The notes beneath the pieces are model-generated. The model saw only the letters and a list, made by a program, of their open reading frames with translations. It had not been told where the DNA came from and did not search any database. A stretch of DNA of 63,891 nucleotides, the filler included, from Sluysia triapertura (Eukaryota), in assembly GCA_046118255.1 (NCBI GenBank). It is 5 parts of 5 records of this genome, joined end to end, with 100 filler letters (N's around TTAATTAATTAA, not from the genome) between each part and the next. Parts side by side here need not be neighbours in the genome. Positions count along the whole stretch, not along the records: positions 40,662 to 52,702 come from JBJNIA010145610.1; 4 more parts are not named here. The stretch is one strand, 5' to 3'. Below are positions 31,780 through 61,300 of the stretch, one piece after another; position 1 is the stretch's first letter; each line of letters opens with the position of its first letter. The position numbers and the translations under genes were made by a program.

Positions 31780-32214
31780 AGCAAGCGAAAAGTTGAAATT
31801 AACATAACTGATCAGTTTGTGAAATCAATGGAAAATCAAAGCGAAAGTGAATTTAACAATCTTGATGTACCTGAACATTTTAAATATGGTGTTCATTACG
31901 ACGATGGATACAATTACATGCAACATTTAGTCAGTATGAAAGATTTCAAAAATCCTAATTTTGAGTTACCAGTAATTAATTTTCGCAAAGATTCTATCGC
32001 TTCTGTCTATAAAAGTGAAGTTGAGGACAATTTATTTGACGAAAGTAATAGCCTGAATGAAGAAGAAGCTGACGAATTTTTTGAAAATTTTGTTAACAAT
32101 AATGAAGCAAAAACTGTAAAGGAACAGCCACAAAATGTAAGGAACAAAAAAGTGTCATTTATGGATGGTTTTGTAAAATGTCTTTCAGAAATTACAAACG
32201 ACATTCATAAAGAA
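31780..32214 (+). CDS. LTV1: LTV1-like 40S ribosome biogenesis factor, internal exon (gene partial or degenerate)
   Basis: KYGVHYDDGYNYMQHL matches the LTV1 YG.F.DD.YDY.QHL motif, followed by an acidic region; ag/gt boundaries. Confidence 0.7.
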
Positions 32215-33974
32215 GTAAGCATTTCAGTATTTTAAGGCAATGAGCCATTTTTTTAAATGAATGTATTTTTTAACATTATTGAACCATTTTCATTACTACT
32301 AATATACACTTTGTCATTAAACAAATAAAAAATTTTATATGCAAATGAAAAAATTATTCAAGTGTAATTAAGATTAATAAGCTTAATTAAATCACTCATT
32401 CTAAACTTTAATAGAGTATTCTTTAATTGGATTCACATCAACTTCGTAAAATTATCCTTCATGTTTATAATGACTGAAACATTTAAAATTTTCAAAAAGT
32501 ACGACAATTTTACTGAAAATAATTTAAAACGAAACGAAAACATCTTAGTAATATTTATAGCTTTAAATATATTTTAGACTTTGAAATTATGAAAGAAATA
32601 TATCTCAAAATCCATAAATGTGCAGCCAAAGTAATTCTTCATTCACTGATAACTAATATAAATTTTAATAATTGTATTTTGATTTTGTGAGGAAATCAAA
32701 CAGCAAGTATACTTTTAGAAATAAGAATTCATAAAAAAGGAAAAGGGTGGTAGTAAAACCATATTCTAGCAACGAAGATTGTCAATAAAATAGAAGTTGT
32801 GTCCGGACAGTCTGAGGCGACTTTGAAAGAAATTAAAAGAAAAATGAAATGAGTTAACAATAACAAAATCAATCATTCGTCGATGCCTAAGATACTCAAG
32901 TTATCACAGAGAGAAATAAAAGGAGTAAATGAATTGAATAAAATACAGTTAATGCTTAAATAAAAATGCAAATATTGGATTCAACATATATAAATTTTTA
33001 TTGTGTGTTTCATGGACATCTTATTTTTATTACTATGATTTTATTAAAATCAAATTGTACAGATTATTATAAAAATTATCTAATTAAATTATATTTTGAT
33101 GAGTTTCATTAAAGATTTTACTTTACTGAAACAAAATTTGTTATTAATTTTTTGTTACAAAAATGTTTAGGTTTATTCTATACATTTTTATGCGTTACAT
33201 TTATTTTTTATGTATTGTAAATGAACAGCATTTTAAATCGTAAAAAGTATTTATGTATCTTGAACATTCGCGCTGATATGGCTATGTGATTAAACATTAG
33301 ATCTAATCCGAAGTTTTATTGAGGTACGTAGAATTTTTATTAATATTAAAATTATTACTGTAACTAATTAATACTTGCAAATTGACAGGAAAATGTTTAT
33401 TTCATTTTTATGTAATAACGATAATTAAACAACATTTTTAAAACTATAAAGTAATAAAATATCATGTTTTCGACATATTGAATGATCCTTGCAACCAATT
33501 AAACAAGAATTTCAATCACTTAGCTGAATAATCCCTTTTCAAAGGAAATAGAACTTATAGGAAGATACTAAATGTTCAGGAAACTTGGTCGAAGTGAATT
33601 TCTATATTAAACTTGGTCAATAATAGAATTTCGAATGTATAAACTTATAATAAAAACTTATAAAACTTTCACTTTTACGAATCATGATGTAAGCTTTAAC
33701 ATTATTGGATATGAACTTATGCTTGTCCTGGTATTTTAACTTATGGGTTCGTTTATAGTCTACGGTTTATGTCTGAACGAGGTGGTAGTTCTAAATATGA
33801 CTCCTTAATTTTCTTTTATAAATCACTATCCTAAAATTCTTACTCTTTTAACTAACATGAACTTTTCTGGAGTCTTAACTAGATTTATGAATATTTTACT
33901 TTAATTTGAGTAATTGCTACAATACACTTTCCAAATTAAATAACTAATAAGACGCAATTGCAAATAAATTAATT

Positions 33975-34920: not shown

Positions 34921-37379
34921 AAGTGTTTCCTAACGTGGGGCCAATTTGAAAATGGAATCGACAAAACTTTAACCCTTTCGTCCCGGGCTATTTAAATGCA
35001 GTGCTAGATATCGGTGCCAAATTTAACAAAAGAAGCAAATTCTTAAATAATTATCAGATATAATTTCGTTTGACGAGACCAAAATATAACTGGGTGATTG
35101 GTCTCGTCGAATAAACTTGGCTCGTGGTTTACCGCGAAGTGTGCAGTCTGACGGGGTGGGGCGGAACCCGGCCAGTCAAGAAATTCGCACCTAATTGGCC
35201 TATCATTACAGCTGTAGTGTTTCACATCATTCTGAAATAAATGTCCGTCAAAATTGTAGTAGAAGCTCGTTTTTTATAAATATACATATTTATTATATAG
35301 ATATAATTGGTAAATATTTTAATTTATTTCAATTTTAGAAGCATAACTTTGCAGAGTTTTTTCAAATAGAAAAAATTTAGGTACCTATGGATTTGCGGTG
35401 GCAGTATAGTAAATGTGTTATATACATTTAAATAAATATGAATTTTTAGTATACATTTGCTCTATGTCACAGTGAATTAATTTTAACACATTTTAATATT
35501 ATTAAAATGAGTAATGCAAGCAAGAAAAAAACTCGTCAATGTTCGGAGGAATACTTAAATTTGGGTTCATACCTGCTGTTCAAGATACGCGGATTCTTTT
35601 TTGTCTTTTATGCCAGCAATACTTGAGTAACAAATCAATGAAACAAAGTCGTCTTGAGGCGCATTCGAAGGCGAAACATAGTGCTCATATTAATTCAGAT
35701 TTGAGTTACTTTAAAACATTGAAGGAAAACTTTGAAAAAAGAACAAAGTCGCTAATTACTGCCCATACTTAAACCAATAATCTTGTTCTTGAGGCTAGTT
35801 ATCAAATTTCTTTATCGCTAAAACTGGAAATCACACTATAGGAGAGAATTTAATAAAACCGTCAGTACCAGCATTTCTTAAAATGGTTCTTGAAAAAGAT
35901 GTAAAAGCTATGCCACTCAGTAAAAATACTGTTAGCAGAAGAATAGACGAAATGAGTGAAGATATGGAAAACAACTTGTTGAAAAGCTGAAAACAAGAAA
36001 ATTTTCAATGCAAATGGATGAATCAACTTTGAGAGATGGTGGGGCAGTATTGATAACTTACTTAAGATATATTGATAAAGATATATTGTAAAATATTAGA
36101 AAACGCCGCTACTCTCAAAGATATATTTAATAAGCTAACAAAGCTACTTAAATGTCAATATGACAATGAAAAATATAACATTTTGTGCTGCAGATGGTGA
36201 TCCAAATATGATGGGCAAGAAAAATGGTTGCTTAAAATTGGTGAAAGATGCGAATCCAGAAATGATTCTTGTGCATTGTGTTATTCATAGGCAAAACTTG
36301 GTAGCTAATAACATATAAACATACTGTAATAAAATGTGTTAATGTTATTAAAGCTAGTGCCAAATATGAGTCTTTTCAAGCTATTTTGTGAAGAACAAAA
36401 TGAAAACCATGTAAGGCTTTTACTTCATACTGAAGTAAGGTGGCTATCTAAAGGAAACTGCTTGAAATGATTTAAGGAACTGTTTGATACTCTTAGTGAT
36501 TTTTTAAGCGACAAACCAGAAATGAAGCATCTATTAACAATCGATGGTAAAGCCTTTGTGAGTTATTTAGCCGATATCTTTAACAAACTAAATATATTAA
36601 ATAAGCAACTTCAAGGAACAAATAAAACTCTTGTCGATGCAAAAGCGAAGATATTTGAGTTATGGCAGAAACATATTAACAACAAAAATTTGAACAGTTC
36701 CACTGGCTCCAAAAATGTGAAGTAACTGATAACGCTGTACTTGTTATTGTAAATCATTTGAATAATTTATCTGCCGATTTAAAAGAAAAATTTTTAGATT
36801 TAAAACAAATTTATTTCCCAACATGGATGATGCAGCCAATGTTAGTGGATTTGTCTGATATATCAAATATGCAGTATCAAGTTAAACTCGCCGAATTGCA
36901 AAATGATGACTCAGTTATATAGTATAAAAGATGCGATGGCATGGCTCAACCATCTTCATTTTTGGCTGAATGTGAATTTAGTGCTGTAAATGATTTACTG
37001 ATAAAAAAGAAATCGGCTGGATATAACACAACGTGGGGATTTGAGACTGAAATTGGAACCCAATATAAAATCTCTCTGCAGCAAGCATCAAGCACAAGGA
37101 TCTCACTACATTAAAATAACAAATTAATATAGAAAAATTATTATTAAAATTATTTGGAATTTGAATTTCAGTTTTTCATTATATGTTTTGAAATTTTACT
37201 TACTCTGTTTTTTTTAACAATTTGATAGTGATTTATTCTTAGAATCCATCATTTATGTTTCTTAAGTGAACAAATCAGTTTTTTTAATGTTACATATTAC
37301 GCATGTTACATAGGGAGAGGCATAAAAACTTTCGAAAGATTAAAGTGGGGCATGGCACAAAATAGGTTGGGAAACACTG
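34921..37379 (+). mobile_element. Near full-length hAT Charlie/Buster transposon
   Basis: TIRs (c/a)AGTGTTTCCTAAC / GTTGGGAAACACTG enclosing a transposase. Confidence 0.92.
35507..37113 (+). pseudogene. ZBED5/SCAND3-like hAT transposase, frameshifted
   Basis: BED finger CLLC...HSKAKH, QMDES, ADG.PNMMG, HCVIHRQNL, LLLHTEVRWLSKG, YLADIF, QAQGSH. Confidence 0.92.
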
Positions 37380-39252: not shown

Positions 39253-41390
39253 TAAAATTATTTTTGATCTTACAAAATTATTTTTGATCCTAACTAAAGA
39301 AAAGTTATTACAGAATAAAATAAACATTGACAAAGAAATAAATAAATTTCCATAAGTTATTTTAGTTAGATTATAAGTTATTAAAAAAATTAACTGTATA
39401 ACTTAATCGTACTACTCAATGATAGTTAATAGTATAGTATAATTAAAGCACAATTATTACTAAGTGAAAAAAATTCTTTGAATTTGAAATTACATTGATT
39501 AAAAATTGTCAAGCTTTGAATAAATGAAACTTTAACGAAATTACGTAACTCCAATAAAATGTAAGAGAAAAATATATACAATTTGAAATTTAAATTAAAT
39601 TAATTAATTTTATGTATATAATTCTTATTTATATTTTATAATTTTTGATTTATTTTATTGGAACACATAATAATCATAAAATTATTTTGTAATTTTCTTT
39701 TTTTGATCAACAAAAACATTTGAAATTCTTTTTCAGATATTAAACTTTTTATTTATTTAAACTTTTCATTATTATTTTATTTTTATTAGTATTATTTAGA
39801 TGAATATCGTTTCTATATAGAAATTGAAAATTTGGATTACCTTGAGAATTAATACAGATGTTTCCAATCGGATTTAAAAATTTTCCAACATACATAATTC
39901 TTGTTTGATTCAAATTATCAAAAACTTAAAATTAATGATTGTTTTGAATTTTAAGAGCATAATACAATATATAACTACTTTATCAATATAATAAATAATG
40001 ATATTTGAATTATATTTTTAAATTAATTTATAAAATGTTATTATTATTTTTATTTCTTTATTTAGTTAATAATGTAAAATTAAAAAATATGAATTTACAA
40101 TAAAATTCAAACATTAATGTAAAGATTTGTTCATAATTATATGTAAGAAATTATTATAAAACAAAAGAAAAATAAATGACAAATTATAAAATTTTACAAT
40201 AGTATTAAAATTGTAATTTAAGCCTTTACAGCTTACAAAAATCAGATCTGTTTTTTTGTTGCAATATAACTAATTATTTTCTTCACTTTTTTTATAAGTA
40301 ATTTATTTTAAATAACATATCATAAATTTGTATTATTTATATCACACAATTCTTTTGTATTTTAAAATAAATCTTATTTAAATGAAATGTAAATATTTAA
40401 GAAGTAAATGTAAATATGTAAATTTTATGTAAATTTAATTTTAATTTTTAATAATTTCTAATTTTGTATTAAATTATATCAAATTAAATGTAAATTAATT
40501 ATTAAATTTAAACTTTGAAACCAAATATTTATAAAAAGGAAATTAGCATTAAAAATAAATGNNNNNNNNNNNNNNNNNNNNNNNNNNNNNNNNNNNNNNN
40601 NNNNNTTAATTAATTAANNNNNNNNNNNNNNNNNNNNNNNNNNNNNNNNNNNNNNNNNNNNGTTGCGTAATTTATAAAATATAAAAGTCTTATTGAAAAC
40701 AACACCTAATAAAGGGTTGTAGAAGTAATTAACTAATATTAAATATAACAGTTAATAGTTTAAGAAAACCTAATAACACGTCTCCAATTTTTGTGTAAAA
40801 CGTATATATTAGGCGAACCGACCTATCGGATAATTTGTTAAGTATAAGAAAAATACTAGCAATATTTTAGTTAGTGCATGACTCGAGATGGATGGTAAAC
40901 CATCACATACAGTCATATGCACGATCTTTACTATATTTACAAAATTAATTCTTTATGATTTTAATATTACATATGACCCAACATGAGTGGGAGTACCATT
41001 ACATATGGTCAATTATGCAATATGTATTAAAAAACCTATATGAAGAAATGAGCCCTATACCTGATAAACAAATAAAATTTCGGGATAACGAAGTTAATTA
41101 TTAAGGTTAACAAAGAAGTTATTATTAAAATATAGTTTATAGTTGTGATGAAGTTATTGTTGGGCTCTCTCGTAATTGGACAATTAGTGTTTTCTTACTT
41201 ATATTCATACCTATATTGGTAGAATTCGCACTTAGGTTCCTGTTTCTATTGATAGCGACTGAAGTGATATTCGTATTCTTGTCATAAAGTATATTCGTAG
41301 CATTGTTAATGATTTTAAGTATTTTTCCTAATTTTATGTCCGAACCATTTTCGTTCTTATCTATGATTGGTACTTATACATCATGGTATC

Positions 41391-42260
41391 TTATTGTTGG
41401 CCATCATGTAATTCTGTTTTTCTCAATATCCAAAATTTGATAAACATGAGTCTATTAGTCGGGATATGATATAGACAAACAGTATCATTAGGCAATGTCA
41501 TTCCGAAACGTAAACCGTCAGATAGTTCGTACGCAATTATCAATGTATTATTGTATAACGGGTTATGAATACGTATAACATTTCCGAGATAGCGATATAT
41601 GATCATTGGAAACTCAATTACTGTTGAAGATTGTCGGAAAACAAATGGTTTAGTTCTTATCTTGTAATACCGTATCAAGATAGTTTTGGAGTTACTTTGA
41701 GAGTCATATTCTAGTTCCATAGTTATTGTTACGCTAATTAGTTGGTATTCGGCAAGATCAATGCAAGATATAAACCAATAGAAATCCTGTTTAATTGCCC
41801 TTGTCTCAATTTCACACCAATCCATTGTACAACATTTTATTTTAACGGAAAATAATTTAATTTTGTCTGTTAATATCTTAGCATAAACATCTTTCCGAGT
41901 GGCTACTAAAATTATTCTAGGTGTATTGTTTTCTGATAAATAATTTGCGCTTGATATACAAGATAGATAGATACATATCAAGATTGTAGATTTTACTTGA
42001 ATCATTTGACAGTCTCCGTATATGAGAGGTATTTGATTATTTGTAGCGTATTCATAAATTGGAGGTGGAAATATTGGCATACCTGGAGGAGGAGGAGCGT
42101 AATTGTTTCTGTGAGGAACTGTATACGCGTCGTCATCGTCATTATTTTTGTTATGCGGTAAGCATGGGTATCGACATCTATTCGAAACGAACATAATAAT
42201 AGTCAATATCACTATAACTAAAGCAATTACGAATAGTATTGCCGCACAATTAGTATCACT
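41391..42260 (-). CDS. Element-borne membrane protein: TM, proline-rich PPxY tail, second signal-like segment and ~180 aa domain
   Basis: 273-aa ORF whose open frame extends upstream to AAILFVIALVIVILTIIMFV; APPPPGMPIFPPPIYEY; ILICIYLSCISSA. Confidence 0.6.
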   Translation of the reverse strand, partial: SDTNCAAILFVIALVIVILTIIMFVSNRCRYPCLPHNKNNDDDDAYTVPHRNNYAPPPPGMPIFPPPIYEYATNNQIPLIYGDCQMIQVKSTILICIYLSCISSANYLSENNTPRIILVATRKDVYAKILTDKIKLFSVKIKCCTMDWCEIETRAIKQDFYWFISCIDLAEYQLISVTITMELEYDSQSNSKTILIRYYKIRTKPFVFRQSSTVIEFPMIIYRYLGNVIRIHNPLYNNTLIIAYELSDGLRFGMTLPNDTVCLYHIPTNRLMFIKFWILRKTELHDGQQ

Positions 42261-42754
42261 AACGCTGGATCATTCCGTAATATCTCCAATATGGTTAGAT
42301 GTTTTCTTGTTCCTTTAAATGCAAAGTGCAAGTATTTTGATGAGTGACGGTATTTCAGTATAATATGTCTATCTTCAACAGGTAAAATATCGGACAGGTA
42401 AAACCAGACAGGGTCCTTTAGTTCACTATTAATATAATTTTCGTATATAACCCATGCGCTAAAGTTAAGTCTGGCAGGTTTCAAACATGCAAATTTGGCA
42501 TGAATGTTTTCATTCAATATTTTAACTTTTACTTCATTGTCTCTATTATAGAATTCAAAATATTCCGTTTTAAAAGATTGTTCGTGACATTGAACTACTG
42601 TAATTATGGTAATCAAAATTAAAGGTATAAGATTTTTATTGTTTGCGGGAACCCGTATTTTCTTACCTATTTGGTACACATAGAGTATAGTCCAAAATAT
42701 GTATAGTAACGTAAAAGTTAGTAATATTATAAAGAATTTATAAGATTGTTCCAT
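42227..42754 (-). CDS. Element-borne membrane protein (TM, signal-like segment, ~115 aa domain)
   Basis: FFIILLTFTLLYIFWTILYVY then LIPLILITIITVVQC. Confidence 0.6.
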   Translation of the reverse strand: MEQSYKFFIILLTFTLLYIFWTILYVYQIGKKIRVPANNKNLIPLILITIITVVQCHEQSFKTEYFEFYNRDNEVKVKILNENIHAKFACLKPARLNFSAWVIYENYINSELKDPVWFYLSDILPVEDRHIILKYRHSSKYLHFAFKGTRKHLTILEILRNDPALVILIVRQYYS

Positions 42755-42786
42755 TGTACCGTTTGCAGTTGAATTGTTTAAATTAC

Positions 42787-43248
42787 CTATTGATTTTTTA
42801 ATCGTGCCATAATCAGATAAGGTGTCTGTATTTTCGTTGTTTCCTCGTTTCGCAACTGATCTATTTGCTTAATAAATTTCTGAATATCCCGTGTATTTCT
42901 TGGAGTGTCAAAAGAGAAAGTTATTAGCATTGGTCTATAACCGTAATCTAGACAATGTGGGATACCGTCTAAATGATATGGCTTTCCCAATAATAATTGT
43001 TTCAAATAGATACAATAGATTTCGAATTTGTGTCCAAGAATCATTTTCTTAGAAATGAATTCGAATTTCCAATATTGATTGTAAATATCAGTAATCATTA
43101 TTTTCTGTTCCCTGCCATGATTTATAGCTATATTCATATTTTTATATTCTTCGTCCGTTTCTGTTGCCATGACATTAGTTACAAGTGATAGAAAAATCAC
43201 AATTAAGATAGAAAACCAACAAGTTATTTTCCCAAAACGATTTTTATT
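42787..43248 (-). CDS. Element-borne ORF with signal-peptide-like N-terminus
   Basis: Open frame KNRFGKITCWFSILIVIFLSLVTNVMA-TETDEEY..., overlapping the end of the protease ORF. Confidence 0.55.
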   Translation of the reverse strand, partial: NKNRFGKITCWFSILIVIFLSLVTNVMATETDEEYKNMNIAINHGREQKIMITDIYNQYWKFEFISKKMILGHKFEIYCIYLKQLLLGKPYHLDGIPHCLDYGYRPMLITFSFDTPRNTRDIQKFIKQIDQLRNEETTKIQTPYLIMARLKNQ

Positions 43249-43908
43249 AAGACAGTTTCTTCATTATGGTATCCTGAATATATGAACTGATTTCTGAATC
43301 CGAATTCTCTTCTGGTGTAATTGATGATGGTGAATCCCATGACACGTCTGATAAATGAAGTGTAGATTCGACGATGTCAGGTAATGGTAAGTCTGGAACT
43401 TGTAATGGTGGATTTGACATTGGCATTTGATATAGAGTTAATTCATCACCAACCTGTGGAACTAATAGTTGCGGTCTAATCATGTTTGAACCTGGTGGTT
43501 TTTTTATAAATCCATATTTGCTGTGAATAACCATATCTTCCAATTTGTTGATAACATCCATTCCCAGTATTAATTCATATGGGCTATTATCCCAAACATT
43601 TACTAAAGTTTGTACCTATTGTCCTAATATTTTTATATAGCATGATAGAGTTCCACTGATATTTATAGGTGTTTGATTTACATTATATGTTATTAAACTT
43701 GGTCTGTTTGGGAATATTTATGAACCACAGTAATAGTAGCGCCGGTATCTACAATTGTTCTAACCCATCGTCCATTAAATCGTACATTTTGCATTATATG
43801 AGCTAAGTCATTTCCATGAGAATTCATCATAAATACCACTTGTTTATTTCTTGGTGCATGAATTGAGGGCGGTTTATCTTGATCCTTATGTCTTAGTTGA
43901 ACCTTCAA
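43247..43908 (-). pseudogene. Retropepsin-like aspartic protease plus Pro/Ser-rich tail
   Basis: VRFNGRWVRTIVDTGATITVV ... YELILGMDVI; interrupted by stops/frameshift. Confidence 0.85.
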
Positions 43909-43968
43909 TTTTGATTTTTGTACCTTTCTATTTCTTAAATTGTACTCTTCTTTTGGTGCAATTTTACA

Positions 43969-44660
43969 TCAATTAACGTGTATTACGAATGTTTCGGAAT
44001 TAATTTTGTTAGGATCTTTAACAAACACATTTGTATCGTTAACTTTTGTTATTAAATAAGGACCTTTAAATGGTTTATGCAGTTTAGGTGAATGTCCGGG
44101 TTTAGTTATTGGATAATATATTAATACTTCATCACCTATTTTAAAAGTGTGTTCCTTCACTGTTTTATCGTATACATCTTTATATATTTCTTGAGAATAT
44201 TTAATTTGAAGACCTGCACGTTTCCATGCATCTTGTAATTGTTCTCTCATTGTTGTTGCATATTCCGGAATTTCCAAGTATTGTGAGGTTCCAAATCCAC
44301 TGGCATATTAGAATGTCTGCCGTACATTAAATAGAATGGAGTAAAATTGGTTTCTGGATGTACAGAACCCTTGTAATCAAAAAGACATGGCGCTATATAT
44401 AAGTCCCAGTCAGTCTGTCTATCGTTTACATAAGATTGAATCATATTAATAAGAGTTCTGTTGAAACGTTCCACTTATCCGTCAGTTTGTGGATGGTAAG
44501 GTGATGTGTAAATTCGAAGAATATTAAAGATTTGATTACATCACTGGTAAAGTTAGTTCCTTGATCTGTTAATAATTTTCTAGGAGTTCCATATCTGTAA
44601 ATTATCTTTTCTACCAATATTTGAGCCACCGTTTCGGCTTTTTGATTAGGTTTTTGGTTA
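43969..44660 (-). pseudogene. Gypsy-type DDE integrase core plus GPY/F domain
   Basis: AETVA, YGTPRKLLTDQGTNF, TSPYHPQTDG*VERFNRTL, TPFYLMYGR, FKIGDEVL, KLHKPFKGPY, IHVN. Confidence 0.95.
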
Positions 44661-45279
44661 ATGTGCGGATTTTGGACCACCAGGTACGTTTATCCGCGAG
44701 GCTTCCAGTGAGCCACTGAAGTGCTTGTGTTAGGTTTCCGTCACAACCCTACAAAATAATTTTAAGATGTCATAATGACACCTATTTAAAACTATTTAAA
44801 GTTACAAAAAAAATCGTTTGAAACCATGGAAAATATTTTAAAATCCTTTATTAATCCTTAAAATTATTTAAAAAACAATTATTTTCCAAAAAATAAATCA
44901 TTTTTCCTAAAAAAGAAAATAAAAATTCTAAAAAAGAAAATTAGCTTATATAAATAGCTTCTATATTCTAGAACATTCCATCGATTTTCACTGGATGATG
45001 ACTAGTATATAAACTAGCATCAATACAATGAAAATCGCCATTTTTAAAATCTTTATTAGTCAGTCGTTAAAAAATTTATCACGTGACGCAGTTATTCGCA
45101 TTCGTAACAAAGCAGTTCGAAATCAATTAACAGTAAATGCCATTCAAATCTACGCTAGTTAAATATTCAAAGGATATTGGAAAGATTATTCATTCGGATT
45201 TTTTGATCAGTTACAATCCATGCAAAAAGTAATTTGTTTGTGTTAAGATTGGTATTAGTTTTGATTAAGGAAACTAATA

Positions 45280-46704
45280 TCACAAAATACACTTAAAATC
45301 ATATTCTGTTATTTGACACCAATTTAGTATGGTTTTTATGAAATTGCTTAATATTACTTTTAGATTAGTAAAATCATTTATTGAATTTAATATTCTTTCG
45401 TACAGAAAATTGTTAGATCTGATTACTAAATTTAAATAAACTTCGTTATTATTATTAAAATTTTTAATAGGTATTAAATATTTAAAATTATCAAATAATT
45501 TACAAAAAAACAATTTACGTAAATAAACAAAAGACATGTAAAAAACTCTGAAGAGATTTATTTTTTATTAAAGCATGAATTATTAATTTTGTCACTATAT
45601 CTCTGTGTACATCACGAGTTCCATCTTCTAATCGATCGTCTAAACAAAAAAATTGGATATCCAATTTATGAAAAATTTTAGTAATATAAAAATTTACATT
45701 CTTCGGTCTCGAATAGTATATACCTAGTTTGCCAATCTTCATAATTCCGATTCTCCAATGGTTGAGTAATGAACGAGTTTGTTAGTGGTTCTACTGGTCT
45801 AGTAAGTGAAAAGATAAGCGTAAGCTCTGATGTTACACGCATTTCATACAAAGCTTTGATCATTAAATTTACTTCTATGCAATCCTTACGACCCTATTTT
45901 ACATATATATATATCAACGAAGTTAAATATTTCATGACTTCTAGAATCAGTATCATCTTGGAGTGATTTAATAATCTTTAATTTTGTTCAAGCATTTGCT
46001 TTCTTTTTATAAACATAACTTTAATTTTAATACGCTTAAATGAATAATGATGATATAATGATTTGGGAATGTAAACCACTTGATACACAATTGACTGAAA
46101 AAATAGACTGTCTTCTTCATTATCATTAACTAAAACATATTTGTTGGATCTTTTAGACTTTCTATACAACCCAGTAAGTACACTTACAGATTAATGGTAC
46201 TATATCGACTATTATAAGCTGAATTTATTAGTAGTTCTGATATAATAATTGGTTTTATCATGTTTGTGTATTTATAACATTTGAGAAATCTTAATCGCCA
46301 TAAAAAATTTAAAATTTGAACCGATACAATGATCAACTTAATTAACTCTGCATTTGACTCTAATTTTAATTTTTTAATTATATCACGATTCCCATGGGTA
46401 CATTATAGTAGTTAGTACGACTATGATCATTTGATGAGGATATTGATTTACAATTTTTCAAGCATTTAGATGCTAACCAAATCTTAACAAAAGTAAACAG
46501 TTTTGCCACTGTGCGTGAATATCTTGAATCATTAAACCAAAATTTTTTATTGTAGGATTCTATAAACAAAGTCTCACTAAGACACTGCCTAATTTCCAGT
46601 ACATTTGATGCATTATATAAAAAACTTATAGTCGTTGCATTGTTTCTCTTGAATTTAGCTTTGATAATAACTATTTGATGATCCGGAATTTGAGAATAAA
46701 ACAT
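45280..46704 (-). other. Cluster of intronless, overlapping orphan ORFs (probable decayed element cargo)
   Basis: Five same-strand ORFs of 61-108 aa, three overlapping as if frameshifted; no recognisable domain. Confidence 0.35.
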
Positions 46705-47906
46705 ATCTATAATGATTTTTAATTTTTTGTCTCACTTTTGTAATGTCTAATTTTTTTGTTTATTTTTAGAATTTTATTTTGTGTTAGATGATCGGTAATT
46801 GGTCATCCAACCAAAATTGTTTATCTGGAAATTTATAAACTTGATTCTGGTTGGATGGCCAGTAACATTGAGGCGAAATTTGCAATTACAACAAAAATGA
46901 CTGCTGTGAATGATTAGCCATCATCAGTGCTGACATAAATGTAACGACAGTAATGAACAGTGTCAACACTGGTGATGATAGTAACAATTTTTAATGGTTA
47001 GATTATTGAATTAAACGAAATATATGAGATTTTATAATAATAATAATAACATTAATGTTGTTATCATTATTAATGTTATTTTACTAAGAAAATGTTTTAA
47101 AATGCATAAATCTCTTGTTTCTTTTACAAAACATGATCTTCCTTTAAATATTCTAGGTTTCTTGACATATTGCAATATCTTTAAATGTGTTATGAACTAA
47201 AATCTCTGAATAAAGATTAGTTTAAATGAAATTTATATATGTAGTTGACGTCTCTAGGTTTTATAGTATTTCTTATACAATATAATGAAATGCGGAACAC
47301 TAGAATGAACTTTTAGATATTGACTTATGTTTTTGATTGAGAATAATATTTGAATATGGGAAGATCGTGAATGAAAGACCTGTTGAGAAGAGCGTAGTTT
47401 GGTAAGCGTGAAAAGGTAAATTATAATACAACTCTTGATATATTTGAATGGTTATAGTGCACTGTTTTACGTGATTTGTTTTCTTGTTGTTTTGAATGTT
47501 ATTGTCTTTTGTGTTGTTAGTAGTTATGTAATGATAAATGATGGATTTAAAGTGTTGTAATTGACTCGAAGGTATCGAGTAGATAATTTCGAATGTAGTT
47601 GTTGTTTGATTTCAGGTTTACAGAAAGTTTTAGGAATATTTATAACCTATATTAAAAAGTATCGGTATATAAGTGACACCGATATGATTTTGATTTATTT
47701 GTTTTTATTTTTATATCTAAGGTAAATTACATAAAATATTTAAGAAAATATTAATAATTAATATTTATCTATGCCTTAATATTACATATTATGCTAGTGA
47801 AAAATAATAAAAGGGTTTTTTATACATTGCATTTAGTAAAACATATTTGACATATTTATATTTTAAGAATAATTATAATAATCTATATATTTTTTTATAA
47901 TTTAAA

Positions 47907-50900
47907 ATGAAAGTGGATTTGATATGGAGTGGTATCGTTTATGATAAAGACAAATCAGAGAAATGGTAAGATAACTTATAAATAAGTTTTTAAGTATATT
48001 TCAGTATATGGGATGCTAGTTTTAGTCCGAACGGTGAAAAAATCATAATTGCGACTGAAAAACTTGTGATTGTTTATAATTCATCTGATGGTTCAAAAAT
48101 CAAAATCCTAAAAAACCATCGTAGTTTAGTATATTGTGTTAGCTTTTCGGCAGATGGTAATACATTTGCAAGTGGTTCTGCGAATGGAGCAGTAATTTTA
48201 TTTAACAGTGAAAATTATGAAGCAATATTAAAATTTGTGTATAATTATATTTTTATTAACTTTTTTAAAGTTTAAGTAATGCAATTCAATGTTTGTCATT
48301 TAATCCAATCACCAATATATTGATAAGTGGTGCTGTAACTGAGTTTGCTTTATGGACACCAGAACAAAAGGCAATTACAAAAGTAAGAGTATCTGCTAAA
48401 GTAACTTGTTGTAATTGGACTACGGATGGTCAGTATATGGCATTAGGTTTATATAATGGTACAATTAGCATACGAAATAAGGTATTTTAATTTTGTTAAT
48501 TATTTAATAAGAATGGAGAAGAAAAAGTAAAACTCGAAAGAAGTGGTGGTGCAAATATGCCTGTTTGGACTTTGGAATGGACTAGGTAATCTCTTTTTAT
48601 TATATATGTTAAAAATAGGGCAGACCAGGTTGACATTTTAGCTGTTGGAGATTGGAGTCAAAAGTTGACGTTTTATCAATTAACCGGTAAAAAAGTAAGA
48701 TATTGCACTGATTTAACATTTTAAAGGTAGTTTATTCTGATGGTACAACTGATGTACAGTTAGCTTTAAAACAAAGGGTACTATAATTTTTCGTTTGAAA
48801 TCATTTTTGATTTACAAATGAACCTCATTAATAAATGATAATAGTTTTATTTTTCAGTAATTATAAAATACTTTGTAACTTCGATTGACGACAAAAATAT
48901 CTAACATAATTAAAGGTTCGTTTGTTTTCAAGTTCAGTTTCAATTTGATTTTACATGACAAATTTAATGATATAGGTAATTAGAAGAAATGTTAGGTTAT
49001 TGTATTATTTAATTTAAGTTTTTGTTCATACTAATTTATTTTATCAATATTTTTCAATAATGATAGCAAAACATAGCTTTAATTCTTTCGGCGCAGTTGT
49101 CTCAATTGTCTCAATCGCCTTTGATGAGAAAACGTAAGTAATCATAATGTACGTTCCATTCGCTAGATAAAGCTCTAGTTTATTTATTAAGAGATAAACA
49201 TTTAAAATTTAAAATATGTTTTATTAGTACTCTGGACTGGCCAAAACTTCATTCTTAATATATATTTTAAGATACTTCATTAAACTTATTATATAGTCTC
49301 ATTCTGTATAATATTCTGCACCACATATTCATACAAAACAACCTAAATGTATAGAAGTATAACTATAATTAATTAATTTTCTCTTGTATTTGTTGAACGA
49401 CAATTCTATCATGTACTTCGAATTGTTTTAAAAATATTTTTTCTGTTGAGAATGTATTATTTTCAATCCACTGATTTATTAACTGACGTACCTGTTCAAT
49501 TTGTGTACGCTTACAAAACAAGCTATATATTACAATCTTCACATAAACAGTGAAACGATTGCCACTTATTTGTCTTTATTATTTTATAAACAAATATTTC
49601 TTTTAACTAATACCGAATCGATTAAAATTCGAAATTCTATCTATCCTAACGGAAGGATGAAAGTGAAGTTTAACTATATTAAAAGTAAGTCTAAAGTTAA
49701 CTGAGTAAGTTTTATTTACCATAATAAATATAATTCGACTACGATGATTATAAATATACAAAATGTAACAGATAAAACATTTAATGTTAGGCACTTAATG
49801 CTTTGTTTAAATATATGAATATAAGTGAAAAGTCATAATTTATTTTTAAGTTTTGTAACAAAAATTATTGTATAACGAGCTTTGAAAATCATTTAATAAA
49901 ATTTCAGATTTATTTTGGACTTATAATTTAGCAAAATAAGATAGGTTTCAAGACATTCTCAAACACAGTATTGACTGAAATATCGTGAACTTGCGCCAAA
50001 TAAGTGAGATATAGAATAACATTTAAATTTAAATTTATTTTGCAAAACTCAGTAGTAAACATAGTAAATAAAAAGATAAAATTATTAAATAATATAATTA
50101 ATTATTATTGTTGTTAGTGTTCTAGCAACCTTATTTCGAAACTATGTGTGTAACTTAGTCAATATTCGAAATCTTATTTTTCATATGACGAATCAGCATT
50201 TAAAAGTAAAATAATGGTAACATTAATGAATAGTTATTACATTTCTACTGACAATAAAAATAGTAATAATAATAATAATAGCAAAAATATATTAATTATT
50301 AAATCTTAAAAGCTTCCCCCGAAAGCAGGGTAAATTAATGTTTTCAAAACCAAATGTGTCATTGATATTTCATAAAGAATGCCGTTTGTTATCATTGGCC
50401 AGAGTAAGGTTTTTGGAATAACCGGAACATGGTCTGGAGCTTGAGTTGAGTCAGCAGACACAGCAAGTTCTGACTGACGGATTTCTGGGTACCGGGAAAA
50501 AATATGATTCATATAGATCCGATATGACATCTTCAGCACTCCAGTAGAAATTTCAACCAGCAATTTGTTTATTGCCGATTTACCGAACTCAAAAGTCCTA
50601 GGAATGCTAATGTTATCAGGATGTATTGTGCCAATAACCGGAAAAGATGAGTAAATACCGAATAAATACTTAATTACAAAGCATTATTAATATTAAATAT
50701 AAATATTTGTTACCTTGTAGTCTAGTTTGGAAATTTTTAACTATTCGTCTTCTAATCAACGTTTTGTATTTAAATGTGCATATTTTGTAAAAATATTTAC
50801 ATATTTTAAGAATTAAGTAACCTAAAATAATAGTAATTCAATAACATTAAATAATAAATAATAAATAAAAGATTTATGTATTATAAATATCTAATAAAAA

Positions 50901-51867
50901 TGTTTTGTTTAATTGTTTTAGATTGGTAAAGAAATAAATCTAAATTTTGATCCTTGTCGTGTGTCATGGATGCGTAATAATTATTTGTTAGTTGCTGGAT
51001 CCAACAAAACGTTACAGCTTTATTCAAAAGATGGCATCAAATTAGACGATATTTATGAAACAAAATCTTGGATATGGTGCTGTAAAGCGAAGCCAAAAGA
51101 TGAAAATCGTGTAGTTAGTTTAGGTTTTAAATTAAAGTTTTTATCTGACAATTAAAGGTTCATAATATTGGCATATAAAAATAATTATACAATTAATACT
51201 AATAATAGCAGTAGAAATAGAAATAGAAATAATTGTAATAATAGTAATATTAACAATTATAAGTAATATAATTATAATAATAATTATGTGATAGTTCTAA
51301 ATTAGTGGACAAATATCCAAATAAATCTTCAATATTGTTAAAAGAAAACCTTTTGTCACTAATCAATATAAACCAAATAATCGTAAAATTTTGTAACAAT
51401 GAACATTCTTAATTTAACGTATTTTCATTATTGTAAGTCATTATCATGGATATTGTGCGGAAAAGGAGAAATGTATTGTTAATTGCTAATAAAATCTTAC
51501 TTGGAAGATTAACTGAAAGTGAATCATAATCAGAATTTTGTTATAATCAATCATAGTCAGAAAATGAACCAGAATGCTTTGACATTGAAAGTATTGTAAT
51601 TTAAAGCTAAAGTATATGCTAAATAAAGCAGTGAACACCCTCTCTGGTCATTCATTGACTTTAATTAGGCATCTTAATCGACTATCAACTAAGTCTTAAA
51701 TTAGAATAATCCTGAAACATCATACGAGTCTTATTTTAGGGGAAGCAGTATAGATTTTAACTAGATGTTATTAACAATAACAACATTTTTAGATTTCCAT
51801 ATTCTTATACAAAATATTGGATTGAATAATAAATATTTATTTTCTAATAAAAATAAAAGGAATAAGA

Positions 51868-51928
<61 letters not shown>

Positions 51929-52105
51929 TAATAATAATGAAAATAAATACTTTATAATTTATTTAGTTAATATGTGGTCAAGACGGAACATTAAATTATC
52001 TACAAATTCAATTTTTAATGATTCATAGTTTGTATAGAGATCGATATGCTTTCAGAGATGGGATGACAGATGTTATTATTCATCATTTAGTTACAGATCA
52101 AAAAG
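47907..52105 (+). CDS. IFT122: Intraflagellar transport protein 122, N-terminal WD40 region; exons 47907-47965, 48005-48238, 48271-48481, 48512-48585, 48619-48694, 50922-51113, 51967-52105; 3' part missing
   Basis: [95 protein letters not shown]; all splice phases consistent. Confidence 0.97.
50306..50650 (-). mobile_element. Probable Gypsy pol fragment (region of the integrase zinc finger) in IFT122 intron 5
   Basis: GC-richer open frame GVL..YR...VIPKTL...ILYE...HL..KTL. Confidence 0.4.
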
Positions 52106-54059
52106 GTATGGTTTCAAATTATTAGTTTTAATTTATTTTATGAAATTTAATATTAATTATTTATCACCATTTTCATATAAATAATATTAATTTCTTAAAT
52201 TTTTATTTTCTCTCTGTGTGTGTGTTGGATGGAGATTTCATTAATTATAAAATAATACAAGGACCTTTAAATAAACCTTTATCTTCGTGATAACATTTTT
52301 TCTTCAAGTGTTTGTGCATGTATAAGTCACACTAGAACTTTTTGGAAGTTATGTATAGAAGATCCCAAGGAAAACTTGATGATGCCTTGAAAATATTGAT
52401 ATTGTATGTGAAATATAAAGTTTTAGATTGTTTTAGAAAAATGGCAAAATGTTTACTATTGTTTCTTTGCAAGATTTTTCAATCTTCTGTCGTAATAACA
52501 ATTTATTATATTATAAATGACAAAACTTCATTATAAAGCATGTTAGAATAAAAGTATACAAAATGTTCAAATAAATTTCAATAAAAATTACTACTTAATT
52601 AAAAAATAAGTAGTAATTGATACTTAATAGATTAATTAAAACAAATTCAAAATTTTAAATAATATAATAGAAATTACGATTAAAATCTTTTATTGTCATT
52701 TANNNNNNNNNNNNNNNNNNNNNNNNNNNNNNNNNNNNNNNNNNNNTTAATTAATTAANNNNNNNNNNNNNNNNNNNNNNNNNNNNNNNNNNNNNNNNNN
52801 NNTAATAATACAATAATAATAATGTAAAAATTATGAAAAATTTGTAATATATCCAATTATTCTCTACGTTGAGTTCTTATGTCTCAAATGAGTGTCAATA
52901 ATTATATACCACCATTAATTCACTTAACTTGTTTAAAAGTTTAACTTAATCTAAATACTTATCTTTAATGTCGTGAATCTTATACTTGTCTCAGTTGTTC
53001 GTAAAAGTTTTCTTGAATTAAATTTCTATTTTTACAGAGTCAATTGAACTTTATTTAATTTATATTAATTTATGAATCATATTGGATTATCTCTTTATTT
53101 GGTAAACTTTACTTTGTTTTACGAAGCTTCAGTTTATCTTATAACACTGTATTTTGTTTCGTAAAACTCTATCTTACTCCTAAAAAACTATGTTATTTCT
53201 ACAGAACTTTATTTCTCAAAGATCTTTTTTATTTTGCATCAACTTTGTTTTATCGTAACTTTTAATTTATTTCCCAGAGGCTTTATTATATTTAAAACCT
53301 ATTTTTTTCAATCCTTTTAATATGAATAAAATATGATTAATATGATTAACTTTTACAAATGAATGTTAAAATTATATTATATTATTATATTATATTAAAC
53401 TAAAAAACATTTAAAATATGCAGAAAAAAAAAATTTAACAAAATATTTGCTTAATTCGGAGTTAGTTAAACCTTCTTCATTAATAACCGCTATATATTCC
53501 GCGATTAATCTCGATCAATAACAACAATGTATTCAGCGAAAAATCTCGAAAAATAACCAAAACGTAAGTTTTTGTACTGTCTTTACTTTATTGCTATACG
53601 AAAATTTTAGTGACATTACAGTTTTAGTTTCATTAGTCTTGGTTTTGCATTTGGATCATTTTAGTTTTGTTGTGTTCCGTGATCATAATTAATAAGTGAC
53701 TTTTTGTGTGCTGCGTTGGCACCATTTATTAGAAATTATTTTATACGATAAATAGTTGTAGTGACCTTTTTTGCATCGAAGTAATTTAAAAGTTTGCTTA
53801 TTTCAATATCTTTTCTATTATATTAATATTAAAGGCTTTTTATTCTCAGAACAGAATAAAAATATATTAAATTTTATAATTTTAATCATAAAATGATTTA
53901 TATACACCAATCTTAGGTTTGACTGTACTTCTTATTGTACCTTAATATTGTGTCGTTTTTTGATGTTTATTTTCGGTTCTACTGAATGATTAGGTACGCT
54001 TAGTTCCAGTCTACATCATCCATACCCTGATTTTCATTTTCTTTGTTCATTTGTTTTTC

Positions 54060-59279: not shown

Positions 59280-61300
59280 GTATTGCGAGTATTTTTCTAT
59301 ACCTAACAAATTATCCGAAAGGTCGGTTCGCCTAATATATACGCTTTATACCAAACTTGGAGACGTATTATTAGGTTTTGGAATTTTAAAACTTAACTTA
59401 AAGTCTAAGTAAATCGATTAGTTACTTTTAGCGTTTATTTGATAATACAATAAATTGATTCTACACTTAGTGTTTATTTTATACTTATAACTAAACAACT
59501 AAATAAAAATTAAATTGACTTTTCTAAGTCGTTGGATTTTAATTATGTTCCACAACCCTTTTATTAAGGTGTTGTTAAATAAAAGTAGGTTTCACAACTC
59601 TCTTACTGAGATGTTGTATAGAAAATATGATTTTATGAGTTTACACAACCCTTCTTTAAATTAAGGTGTTGTTGAATGAAATAGATGTTTATTTATTTAG
59701 TTGTATTACTTTATTCGATTCTCAACAAAACAAAAAATCGCTTAACACACTAAAATTTTATTTGTTTCAAAATACTAAATACTTACAACTAACTTATATA
59801 ATAACAATATTCAATTTACTTAATTGAACGCTGTGGTTGATTAATCAGATTTTATTAGAAGTTACTCAACCCTTTATAAATTAAGGTGTTGATAGAAAAA
59901 TAAATACTTTAATTTAAGTGCAAATTTAAATATCCCTGTTTAAGGTGATATTACAATAACCTATGTAATAAAAAATTACTTTTGTAACATGGAAATTGAA
60001 TAAATCGATTCTTCAAATGATATTTTTCCTTAAAAACTTCGCTTCTAAATTTTTAAATCTTTTTCCTAAAATCTTCGATTCTAATTTTTCAAATCTTTTT
60101 CCTAAAATCAAAAAATTTGGTTGTCTGCTATCTAAATGTTCATTCTGAAAATTTTATATAAAGCTTACCTACTTATAGAAATATTTTTGCAATATGGCTT
60201 CTAATAAAGCTTTTTAAAATAAACAAAATATTTTCCAAAATTTAAACAAATGAATTTTTTACTACTTTAAAATTATTATTTTTAGTTTTGTTATTAAAAT
60301 TATAAATTATTATTTAATTATTATTTATTTTTTATTTAATAATTTTATTTAAATTTAAAATTAGAAATTTTATTTAGATTCATTTTAAAAAATTTATTTA
60401 ATTATTAGAAATTTTATAATATTAATTTTAAAAATAAAAATAAAACACAACAAAAATTACACATTAAAAAACATAAAAAACCTTTACAAAATTAATAAAT
60501 GAAATAAAATAAAATCTTTTAAATTAAATAAAATTAAATTTTACTTTTAGTTTCCTTTAAATAATTTAAATTTGGTTTTTGTTCAAATAAACTAATTTCA
60601 ATTTCAAATAGCAAATAATAACAAACAAGAAAACAATACGGCGACTGAAAAGTTTGCTATATAATGATAAGAATTCTAGCGAAATTTTCAGAAATTCATA
60701 TTCTATAATTTGAAAATAATCGTCGCAAATTTTCAGTTCCATGTCTAAAGTAAGATTTTGTTATATAGATTGCTCATTCTCACCGTAGCCAGCATGATAT
60801 AAAATACACGAAAAATTATTAATTTGTTTTGACTTAGACCGTAAATGGCTAAGTTAATTTCTAATTAAATTTATCGCACTAAATCAATAGATTTAAGTGC
60901 TAATTTAATTGTTATTATCTTCATTTGTATCTGTAAGAATTCCTATTTATGTCATTTGTATTTGTAAAATTTCCTTTTGTAATATACTTTGAATAAGTTC
61001 ATAGTTATTTATTAAACAAATAAAATATCATTTATCCTCGTTAGACCCTAACAACGTTGGCTAAACATATTAAAATATAAAGAAAATTTTACAATTAGAC
61101 CGTAAAGGCTAATTTAAAATACAAGTTTCAAAGTTAGAACGTAAAAAGGCTAACTCAAAATCTTGTAAATTATTCTCATTATTAATTAAATAATTCCAAC
61201 GATTTAGTAACTAAGTGTTACATAACTAATAGTGCTGCTTACGTGACTGATTCATACGTGACTGTTTACAAAATTGCTAAGATGATACGTGACCCATTTA
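59280..61300. repeat. Non-coding retroelement-associated region with hairpin arrays; left end homologous (inverted) to 40700-40865
   Basis: aaattatccgaaaggtcggttcgcctaatatatacg...ggagacgtattattaggtttt matches the reverse complement of 40765-40865. Confidence 0.7.

Follow-up and report, generated by a model that had tools for sequence, protein, structure and literature searches.

Retroviruses and Ty3/Gypsy retrotransposons normally encode one protease per genome, and the domains known to be added to their integrases are chromodomains. Dimerisation of the aspartic protease times particle maturation in retroviruses and LTR retrotransposons. In Gmr1-like Gypsy elements, the integrase is located upstream of the reverse transcriptase (RT). 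In the planarian Burro elements, an Env is placed in frame after gag and before the protease, a SUMO-like domain and ankyrin repeats are present, and the open reading frame (ORF) of Burro/GYPSM1 spans 4,873–5,140 aa (PMC6431247). Burro/GYPSM1 elements exceed 25–30 kb and occur in many copies. In the accessible text of PMC6431247, only one protease is mentioned, with nothing behind the integrase, and decayed remains of Burro are reported for Dugesia japonica. GAG-ENV-POL errantiviruses have been described in nematodes, bryozoans and flatworms (PMC13524379); within the accessible part of this source, the word 'protease' is used once, for the standard layout. In Ginger1 DNA transposons, a protease domain of the OTU or Ulp1 cysteine type comes after a Gypsy-type integrase with GPY/F, and, as far as the accessible text goes, these transposons have terminal inverted repeats of 40–270 bp and no RT (PMC2836005).

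Here we analysed 63,891 nucleotides, filler included, of the Sluysia triapertura assembly GCA_046118255.1; this whole stretch is referred to as the window. Its minus strand holds a Gypsy-type integrase that is followed by a retropepsin and then by putative membrane-protein cargo, arranged as follows.

44540–44698, minus strand: integrase core, first piece (rve), with one stop; tblastn matches of relatives end at about 44698
44292–44537, minus strand: integrase core, second piece, in another frame, 58–67% identical to relatives, with a stop at 44477
43972–44286, minus strand: C-terminal part of the integrase with GPY motif and SH3-like domain, assigned by motif and match to relatives
43969–43971, minus strand: premature stop, at a position that is open in relatives
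43795–43968, minus strand: open integrase-protease linker with a hydrophobic stretch at its end, of a length as in relatives
43696–43794, minus strand: N-terminal half of the retropepsin with DTG, in the integrase frame, assigned by Pfam and the relatives' profile
43541–43681, minus strand: C-terminal half of the retropepsin with ILGMD, after a frameshift and with one stop, assigned by motif and the relatives' profile
43250–43540, minus strand: Pro/Ser-rich spacer from the protease to the first signal peptide, with no RT after it
42790–43260, minus strand: cargo piece 1, a signal-peptide-like segment and ectodomain predicted by hydropathy; no Pfam match at E <0.01
42230–42868, minus strand: cargo piece 2, a transmembrane segment (TM), short loop, second signal-peptide-like segment and ectodomain predicted by hydropathy
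41394–42269, minus strand: cargo piece 3, a TM, Pro-rich tail (PPxY), third signal-peptide-like segment and beta-rich ectodomain predicted by hydropathy
41140–41373, minus strand: short last ORF piece, possibly the cargo end, without a match to Pfam or relatives
40662–41139, minus strand: 3' non-coding sequence, possibly part of an LTR, meeting the gap of N at 40562–40661

The C-terminal frame of the integrase, which includes the GPY motif, runs into a stop at 43971–43969, past which the same frame stays open for 91 more codons and enters VDTGATITVV, with the catalytic Asp codon at about 43749–43747. The second half of the retropepsin (ILGMD, at about 43573–43559) lies in a different frame owing to a frameshift near 43696–43681, and holds one further stop at 43618. 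Motifs and profiles thus confirm the sequence-only reading, which had seen the integrase frame resume beyond its stop and the ILGMD motif follow a lesion. Specifically, Pfam applied to the N-terminal half of the protease alone returned gag-asp_proteas (E 5.5e-4) and RVP (E 0.006), both under the curated cut-offs, while a profile built from the relatives' proteases matched both halves with E values of 1.4e-7 and 3e-8. The window has a single instance of the paired protease motif, and none of 100 dinucleotide Markov resamples produced it.

The integrase belongs to the Ty3/Gypsy type with GPY/F, as judged from the GPY motif and a Pfam rve match to the core (E 1.1e-4 at 44444–44689). This core is broken across three frames and ceases to match relatives at about 44698. 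The element is cut off 5' of the first core piece, where neither a zinc finger nor RNase H or RT was found, and the stretch from 44700 to 52000 yielded no RNase H, RT or upstream protease. The order protease, RT, RNase H and integrase is present in relatives; of these domains, the window copy retains part of the last, where its truncation lies. Downstream of the protease, the window contains membrane-protein cargo instead of an RT, in agreement with the earlier statement that no RT follows the fusion. The window copy is decayed and dead, and is without its 5' two-thirds. The linker from the integrase end to the catalytic Asp measures 73 aa, within the 47–76 aa of 12 relatives, and a hydrophobic stretch precedes this Asp by 30 residues, compared with 26–32 residues in 11 of the 12. 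This stretch is a putative retropepsin cleavage site.

To collect relatives, we used the window fusion in a phmmer search against 1.84 billion representatives, which gave 1,566 matches, and the best 150 of the 1,566 were examined; the integrase end and the protease were covered in one stretch by four of the six top matches. Two region searches for long proteins gave 7 and 43 matches, and a word-based protein search with the fusion found nothing in 146 candidates (proteins of 358–2000 aa). A PDB sequence search yielded a chance match only. Among the matches listed, at least 12 relatives have the integrase and then the protease in one open frame, namely 11 of the 58 examined proteins of at least 1000 aa and, additionally, P0003 (550 aa); three pairs of them are closely related, leaving about nine lineages. 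Since all 12 are open in one uninterrupted frame, the stop after the integrase is a lesion of the window copy, as had been suspected. The window integrase is 47–58% identical to those of the twelve and nests among them in the integrase tree.

The fusion is family-wide but optional. Each of the 11 long fusion proteins has an integrase at least 53% identical to that of P0008, a level reached by 19 of the 58 proteins; a protease after the last integrase is found in 0 of the 39 remaining proteins of at least 1000 aa, a contrast that is partly built in because many of these distant proteins stop shortly past the integrase. Eight close relatives pass from the integrase to a signal peptide or hydrophobic segment without any protease, which makes the protease optional, and the window linker shows no repeat, LTR-like piece or junction; of the two observations that would have counted against the fusion in the sequence-only reading, the former was thus made and the latter was not. 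At least five changes are needed to place the post-integrase protease on the integrase tree, so it has been gained or lost repeatedly (the integrase trees comprised the 40 best of 57 long matches and, in a second tree, 36 chosen rows). Together, these comparisons indicate that the integrase-protease fusion is an optional family trait and not debris. The window cargo was found in none of the relatives examined, and hence the window's ORF of integrase, protease and cargo has not been seen intact.

The domain after the integrase had been taken for a second or relocated protease; a real second protease is borne out by the 12 relatives with an open fusion and by the pre-RT enzymes that they keep (see below). 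All 12 post-integrase proteases retain D[ST]G. So do 36 of the 40 protease-like domains in long clade members, and of the four that do not, one is truncated by the protein start. The post-integrase domain of P0003 lies above the Pfam cut-offs, and its predicted model resembles Ddi1 (Z 9.1, rmsd 3.1, 100 aligned) and the EIAV protease (Z 8.9), although Z values of 8–9 are near the level that the tool flags as a possible common arrangement. The top eight rows of this fold search are all retropepsins. The model has a pLDDT of 59–75 over the protease domain and 43 overall, with a low-confidence integrase linker, and the region corresponding to 43972–44286 is predicted to fold like integrase C-terminal domains. 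The window motifs (D[ST]G and ILG.D), combined with the Pfam match and modelled fold of P0003, point to a retropepsin of clan AA, A2-like. In five of five pairs, the post-integrase protease is better conserved than the sequence following it (73 vs 49%, 33 vs 22%, 69 vs 55%, 34 vs 32%, and 36 vs 28%), the weakest by 2 points; in the same pairs, it diverges much faster than RT or integrase.

The proteases of this clade fall into two groups. Held-out profiles correctly sorted 16 of 16 proteases located before the RT (pre-RT) and 20 of 20 accessory proteases, and the pre-RT enzymes form one side of the second protease tree (96/76), which left out four distant pre-RT rows, one degenerate domain, the near-copy P0003, P0159 and two other motif-less domains. 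The accessory proteases mix across positions; for instance, P0005 has a post-integrase protease whose sister group is the post-Env proteases of P0008 and P0153 (99/96). A single clade for all post-integrase proteases was rejected (p-AU 0.0006). As a group, the accessory proteases are separate from the pre-RT enzymes, and their recurrence at varying positions is that of a shuffled module.

The fullest relatives (P0155, P0156, P0158, P0159, and P0164) are single ORFs of 2,871–4,029 aa that encode, in order, gag, Env (PF24664), one or two proteases, RT, RNase H, integrase, and a protease. The Env is gB-type and lies after gag, between a signal peptide and a TM. Behind the post-integrase protease, two hydrophobic segments, predicted as signal peptide and TM, bound an ectodomain, and such a second type-I-like membrane protein ends most clade members (P0004, P0006, P0008, P0009, P0017, P0153, and P0155–P0165); by eye only, its repeats look fibronectin-III-like. 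The hydropathy scan thereby predicts two membrane passages in the relatives. All eight fusion proteins that reach upstream of the RT carry both the usual pre-RT protease and the post-integrase one, and the idea of a relocated protease is therefore rejected for the family; seven of these eight have three proteases. Motif-less protease-like domains stand just before ankyrin repeats in P0006 (948–1053), P0160 (1197–1286), and P0161 (1956–2058), the pair being located after the integrase in two proteins and before the RT in the third.

The relatives keep the protease, RT, RNase H and integrase core and the retropepsin fold of canonical Ty3/Gypsy and retroviral pol (PMC12440569). They resemble Burro/GYPSM1 in the one huge ORF, the gag with CCHC knuckles and the in-frame Env, as well as in a SUMO-like Ubi2 domain (P0161, PF11976, E 0.0015) and ankyrins (P0006, P0160, and P0161); Pfam found neither the Ubi2/SUMO-like nor the ankyrin domains in the remaining window part. 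In contrast to the single protease named in the accessible Burro text, the relatives have up to three proteases and a C-terminal membrane protein, and their ORFs of 2,600–4,060 aa are shorter than the 4,873–5,140 aa given there (PMC6431247). A conserved block between protease and RT, to which Pfam gave no name, occupies the place of the dUTPase-like domain of Burro in the accessible description, and bears this label by review only. BIR, BCL2-like and MATH domains were found by Pfam in none of the window pieces or 27 relatives, so the element is called Burro-like and not Burro itself. As for the errantiviruses with an HSV/gB-type Env in the accessible part of PMC13524379, the relatives share their order, with an Env of class PF24664, whereas the window copy has lost both Env and gag. 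By eye only, the printed Env pieces of Smed_errantivirus_1-6 resemble the relatives' Env, and YQES occurs in four rows of the accessible supplement, all of them S. mediterranea elements (PMC13524379); the likeness would suit a planarian host for the window element.

We consider it probable that a Burro-like GAG-ENV-POL Ty3/Gypsy element left its decayed 3' third in the window; in such an element, the post-integrase protease would be an optional extra module from the accessory retropepsin group with a part in polyprotein processing. The polyprotein would cross the ER membrane twice, leaving Pol as a cytosolic loop tethered at both ends, and the accessory proteases would adjoin the membrane tethers around Env and after the integrase. 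The extra protease would not be a working part of the integrase; it may be excised at the hydrophobic site just upstream, dimerise like other retropepsins, and help to release the integrase from the membrane-anchored C-terminal protein. This cutting free of the integrase would be its likeliest role. By established topology, cargo behind signal-peptide-like segments would be lumenal and separated by signal peptidase, so that a cytosolic retropepsin would have access to no more than the junctions on the integrase side and short loops in the cytosol. The earlier proposal that the extra protease processes the downstream cargo is consequently not supported as it stood, the cargo ectodomains lying behind such segments. 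Since eight relatives manage without a post-integrase protease, it would be an aid and not a requirement. More tentatively, the second retropepsin family could be a mobile, self-excising module that is inserted at membrane anchors or with new cargo and gives rise to multi-protease processing, a generalisation that we regard as possible but doubtful. If true, it would imply different specificities or mixed dimers, nearer to the polyproteins of large RNA viruses than to any retroelement described, and would explain how the elements came to have single ORFs of giant size that encode two surface proteins.

The same architecture could have a separate origin, in which a copy of the pre-RT protease came to lie after the integrase in the window lineage, without connection to the accessory group of the relatives; to this history we assign a real but minor chance. 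The best identities of the window protease (32–33%) are to pre-RT proteases, it scores 65.9 bits with the pre-RT profile vs 57.5 with the accessory profile, a lead of 8 bits, and it stands among pre-RT rows in the first tree (83/76); the five or more changes on the integrase tree point the same way. However, the larger tree places it on the accessory side, basal to the accessory rows (96/76), its grouping with accessory proteases is not rejected (p-AU 0.28), and the window sequence is decayed and forms a long branch. The window protease appears to fall between the two groups, and it may stem from an independent duplication. The leaning towards pre-RT enzymes, together with the truncation and decay of the copy, would also suit an accidental junction, made by nested insertion or by a deletion joining the integrase of one copy to the pre-RT protease of another. 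A precedent of sorts is the fish gene model P0167, where a protease lies between two tandem pol copies, the integrase being followed later by protease, RT and integrase. Yet the window linker is open, has the family's length and hydrophobic stretch, and contains neither repeat nor LTR-like piece, and a spacer and signal peptide, not an RT, come after the protease as in relatives; an accident is thus very improbable, and what chance it keeps comes from the window cargo being found in none of the relatives examined.

The extra domains may alternatively serve purposes other than polyprotein processing, as released host-directed enzymes or as partners or decoys that tune the main protease through heterodimers. 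They are optional, fast-evolving and mobile, the three copies beside ankyrin repeats lack D[ST]G, and many host-directed domains are reported for Burro in the accessible part of PMC6431247. On the other hand, the first post-integrase copies keep the motif in 12 of 12 cases and sit at a polyprotein junction beside a membrane anchor. We know of no host substrate for extra retropepsins, which we count against a host-directed function, and we hold this explanation to be unlikely. Least credible of all is membership of the Ginger1-type DNA transposons or of the Gmr1-like elements, which have the integrase before the RT. The combination of GPY/F and a C-terminal protease domain recalls the Ginger1 transposases, the window copy is without RT, and an inverted match of 8 bp is located close to its two ends, but the window domain is a retropepsin and not a cysteine protease, the nearest integrases reside in RT-bearing polyproteins of protease, RT, RNase H and integrase order, and neither a longer terminal inverted repeat nor a downstream RT was found in the window. 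In contrast to the one aspartic protease described for retroviruses and LTR retrotransposons, this clade of enveloped Gypsy elements keeps two or three motif-intact retropepsins per chain, with the accessory group shuffled around Pol.

In the accessible literature, we found no text on several retropepsins per retroelement polyprotein or on a post-integrase one, although published Burro drawings may show it; the layout is apparently undescribed in text. Its architecture is well supported by the sequences, and the mechanism is the more conjectural part. With the extra retropepsins, the processing of giant Burro-type polyproteins gains a proposed explanation that can be tested, and the second membrane protein after the integrase is an addition to the accessible Burro and errantivirus texts. 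For annotation, an integrase followed by a protease is not necessarily a nested insertion.

The cargo consists of four ORF pieces, whose hydrophobic segments recur in the order signal peptide, ectodomain, TM; these signal peptides and TMs were called by a simple hydropathy scan and are predicted segments. The cargo gave no Pfam match under E 0.01 and no match to any relative examined. For cargo piece 3, the Atlas was blank, and a single-sequence model (pLDDT 44) had no fold match. For cargo piece 2 (42230–42868, minus strand), the Atlas leads were beta-trefoil lectin-like clusters at 0.80–0.82, under the 0.9 threshold. PPxY occurs in predicted cytosolic tails of post-integrase membrane proteins, in the window at 42050–42070 (minus strand) and in P0014, P0164, and P0165; we take these motifs to resemble late domains or NEDD4-binding sites. 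A decayed second relative of the cargo region 42050–42471 lies at 4774–5154 (minus strand), with the Pro-rich tail kept, and is 62% identical to it over 374 aligned bases (score 144.5 vs a shuffled maximum of 82).

At its 5' side the window copy is truncated, and its 3' end meets a gap of N that hides any target duplication. The true element ends are missing from the window, where no terminal inverted repeat was found beyond the 8-bp match; this 8-mer, ACAACCCT, is inverted near both remnant ends (40713–40720 and 44743–44750), appears again at 16048–16055, and may be due to chance. A non-coding block at 40765–40864 is 91% identical to 59281–59379 (plus strand). After this 100-bp block, the region 59281–59900 (plus strand) repeats a short hairpin-like motif, also present at 40700–40720, three to four times, and the region is possibly a solo LTR or the 3' end of a related element. 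Rfam gave no match in 40000–46500. A gag-like fragment at 12273–12693 (minus strand) matches the gag of P0156 and P0164 (E about 1e-4). The window is AT-rich (20–32% GC) and has gaps composed of 44 N, a 12-base spacer and 44 N at 15925–16024, 28337–28436, 40562–40661, and 52703–52802. By eye, remnants at 6300–7100 (minus strand), 8023–8572, and 35500–36950 (plus strand) read like Tc1/mariner and hAT-type transposases. Host exons of LTV1 (31780–32235, plus strand) and IFT122 (47994–48275, plus strand) are also present.
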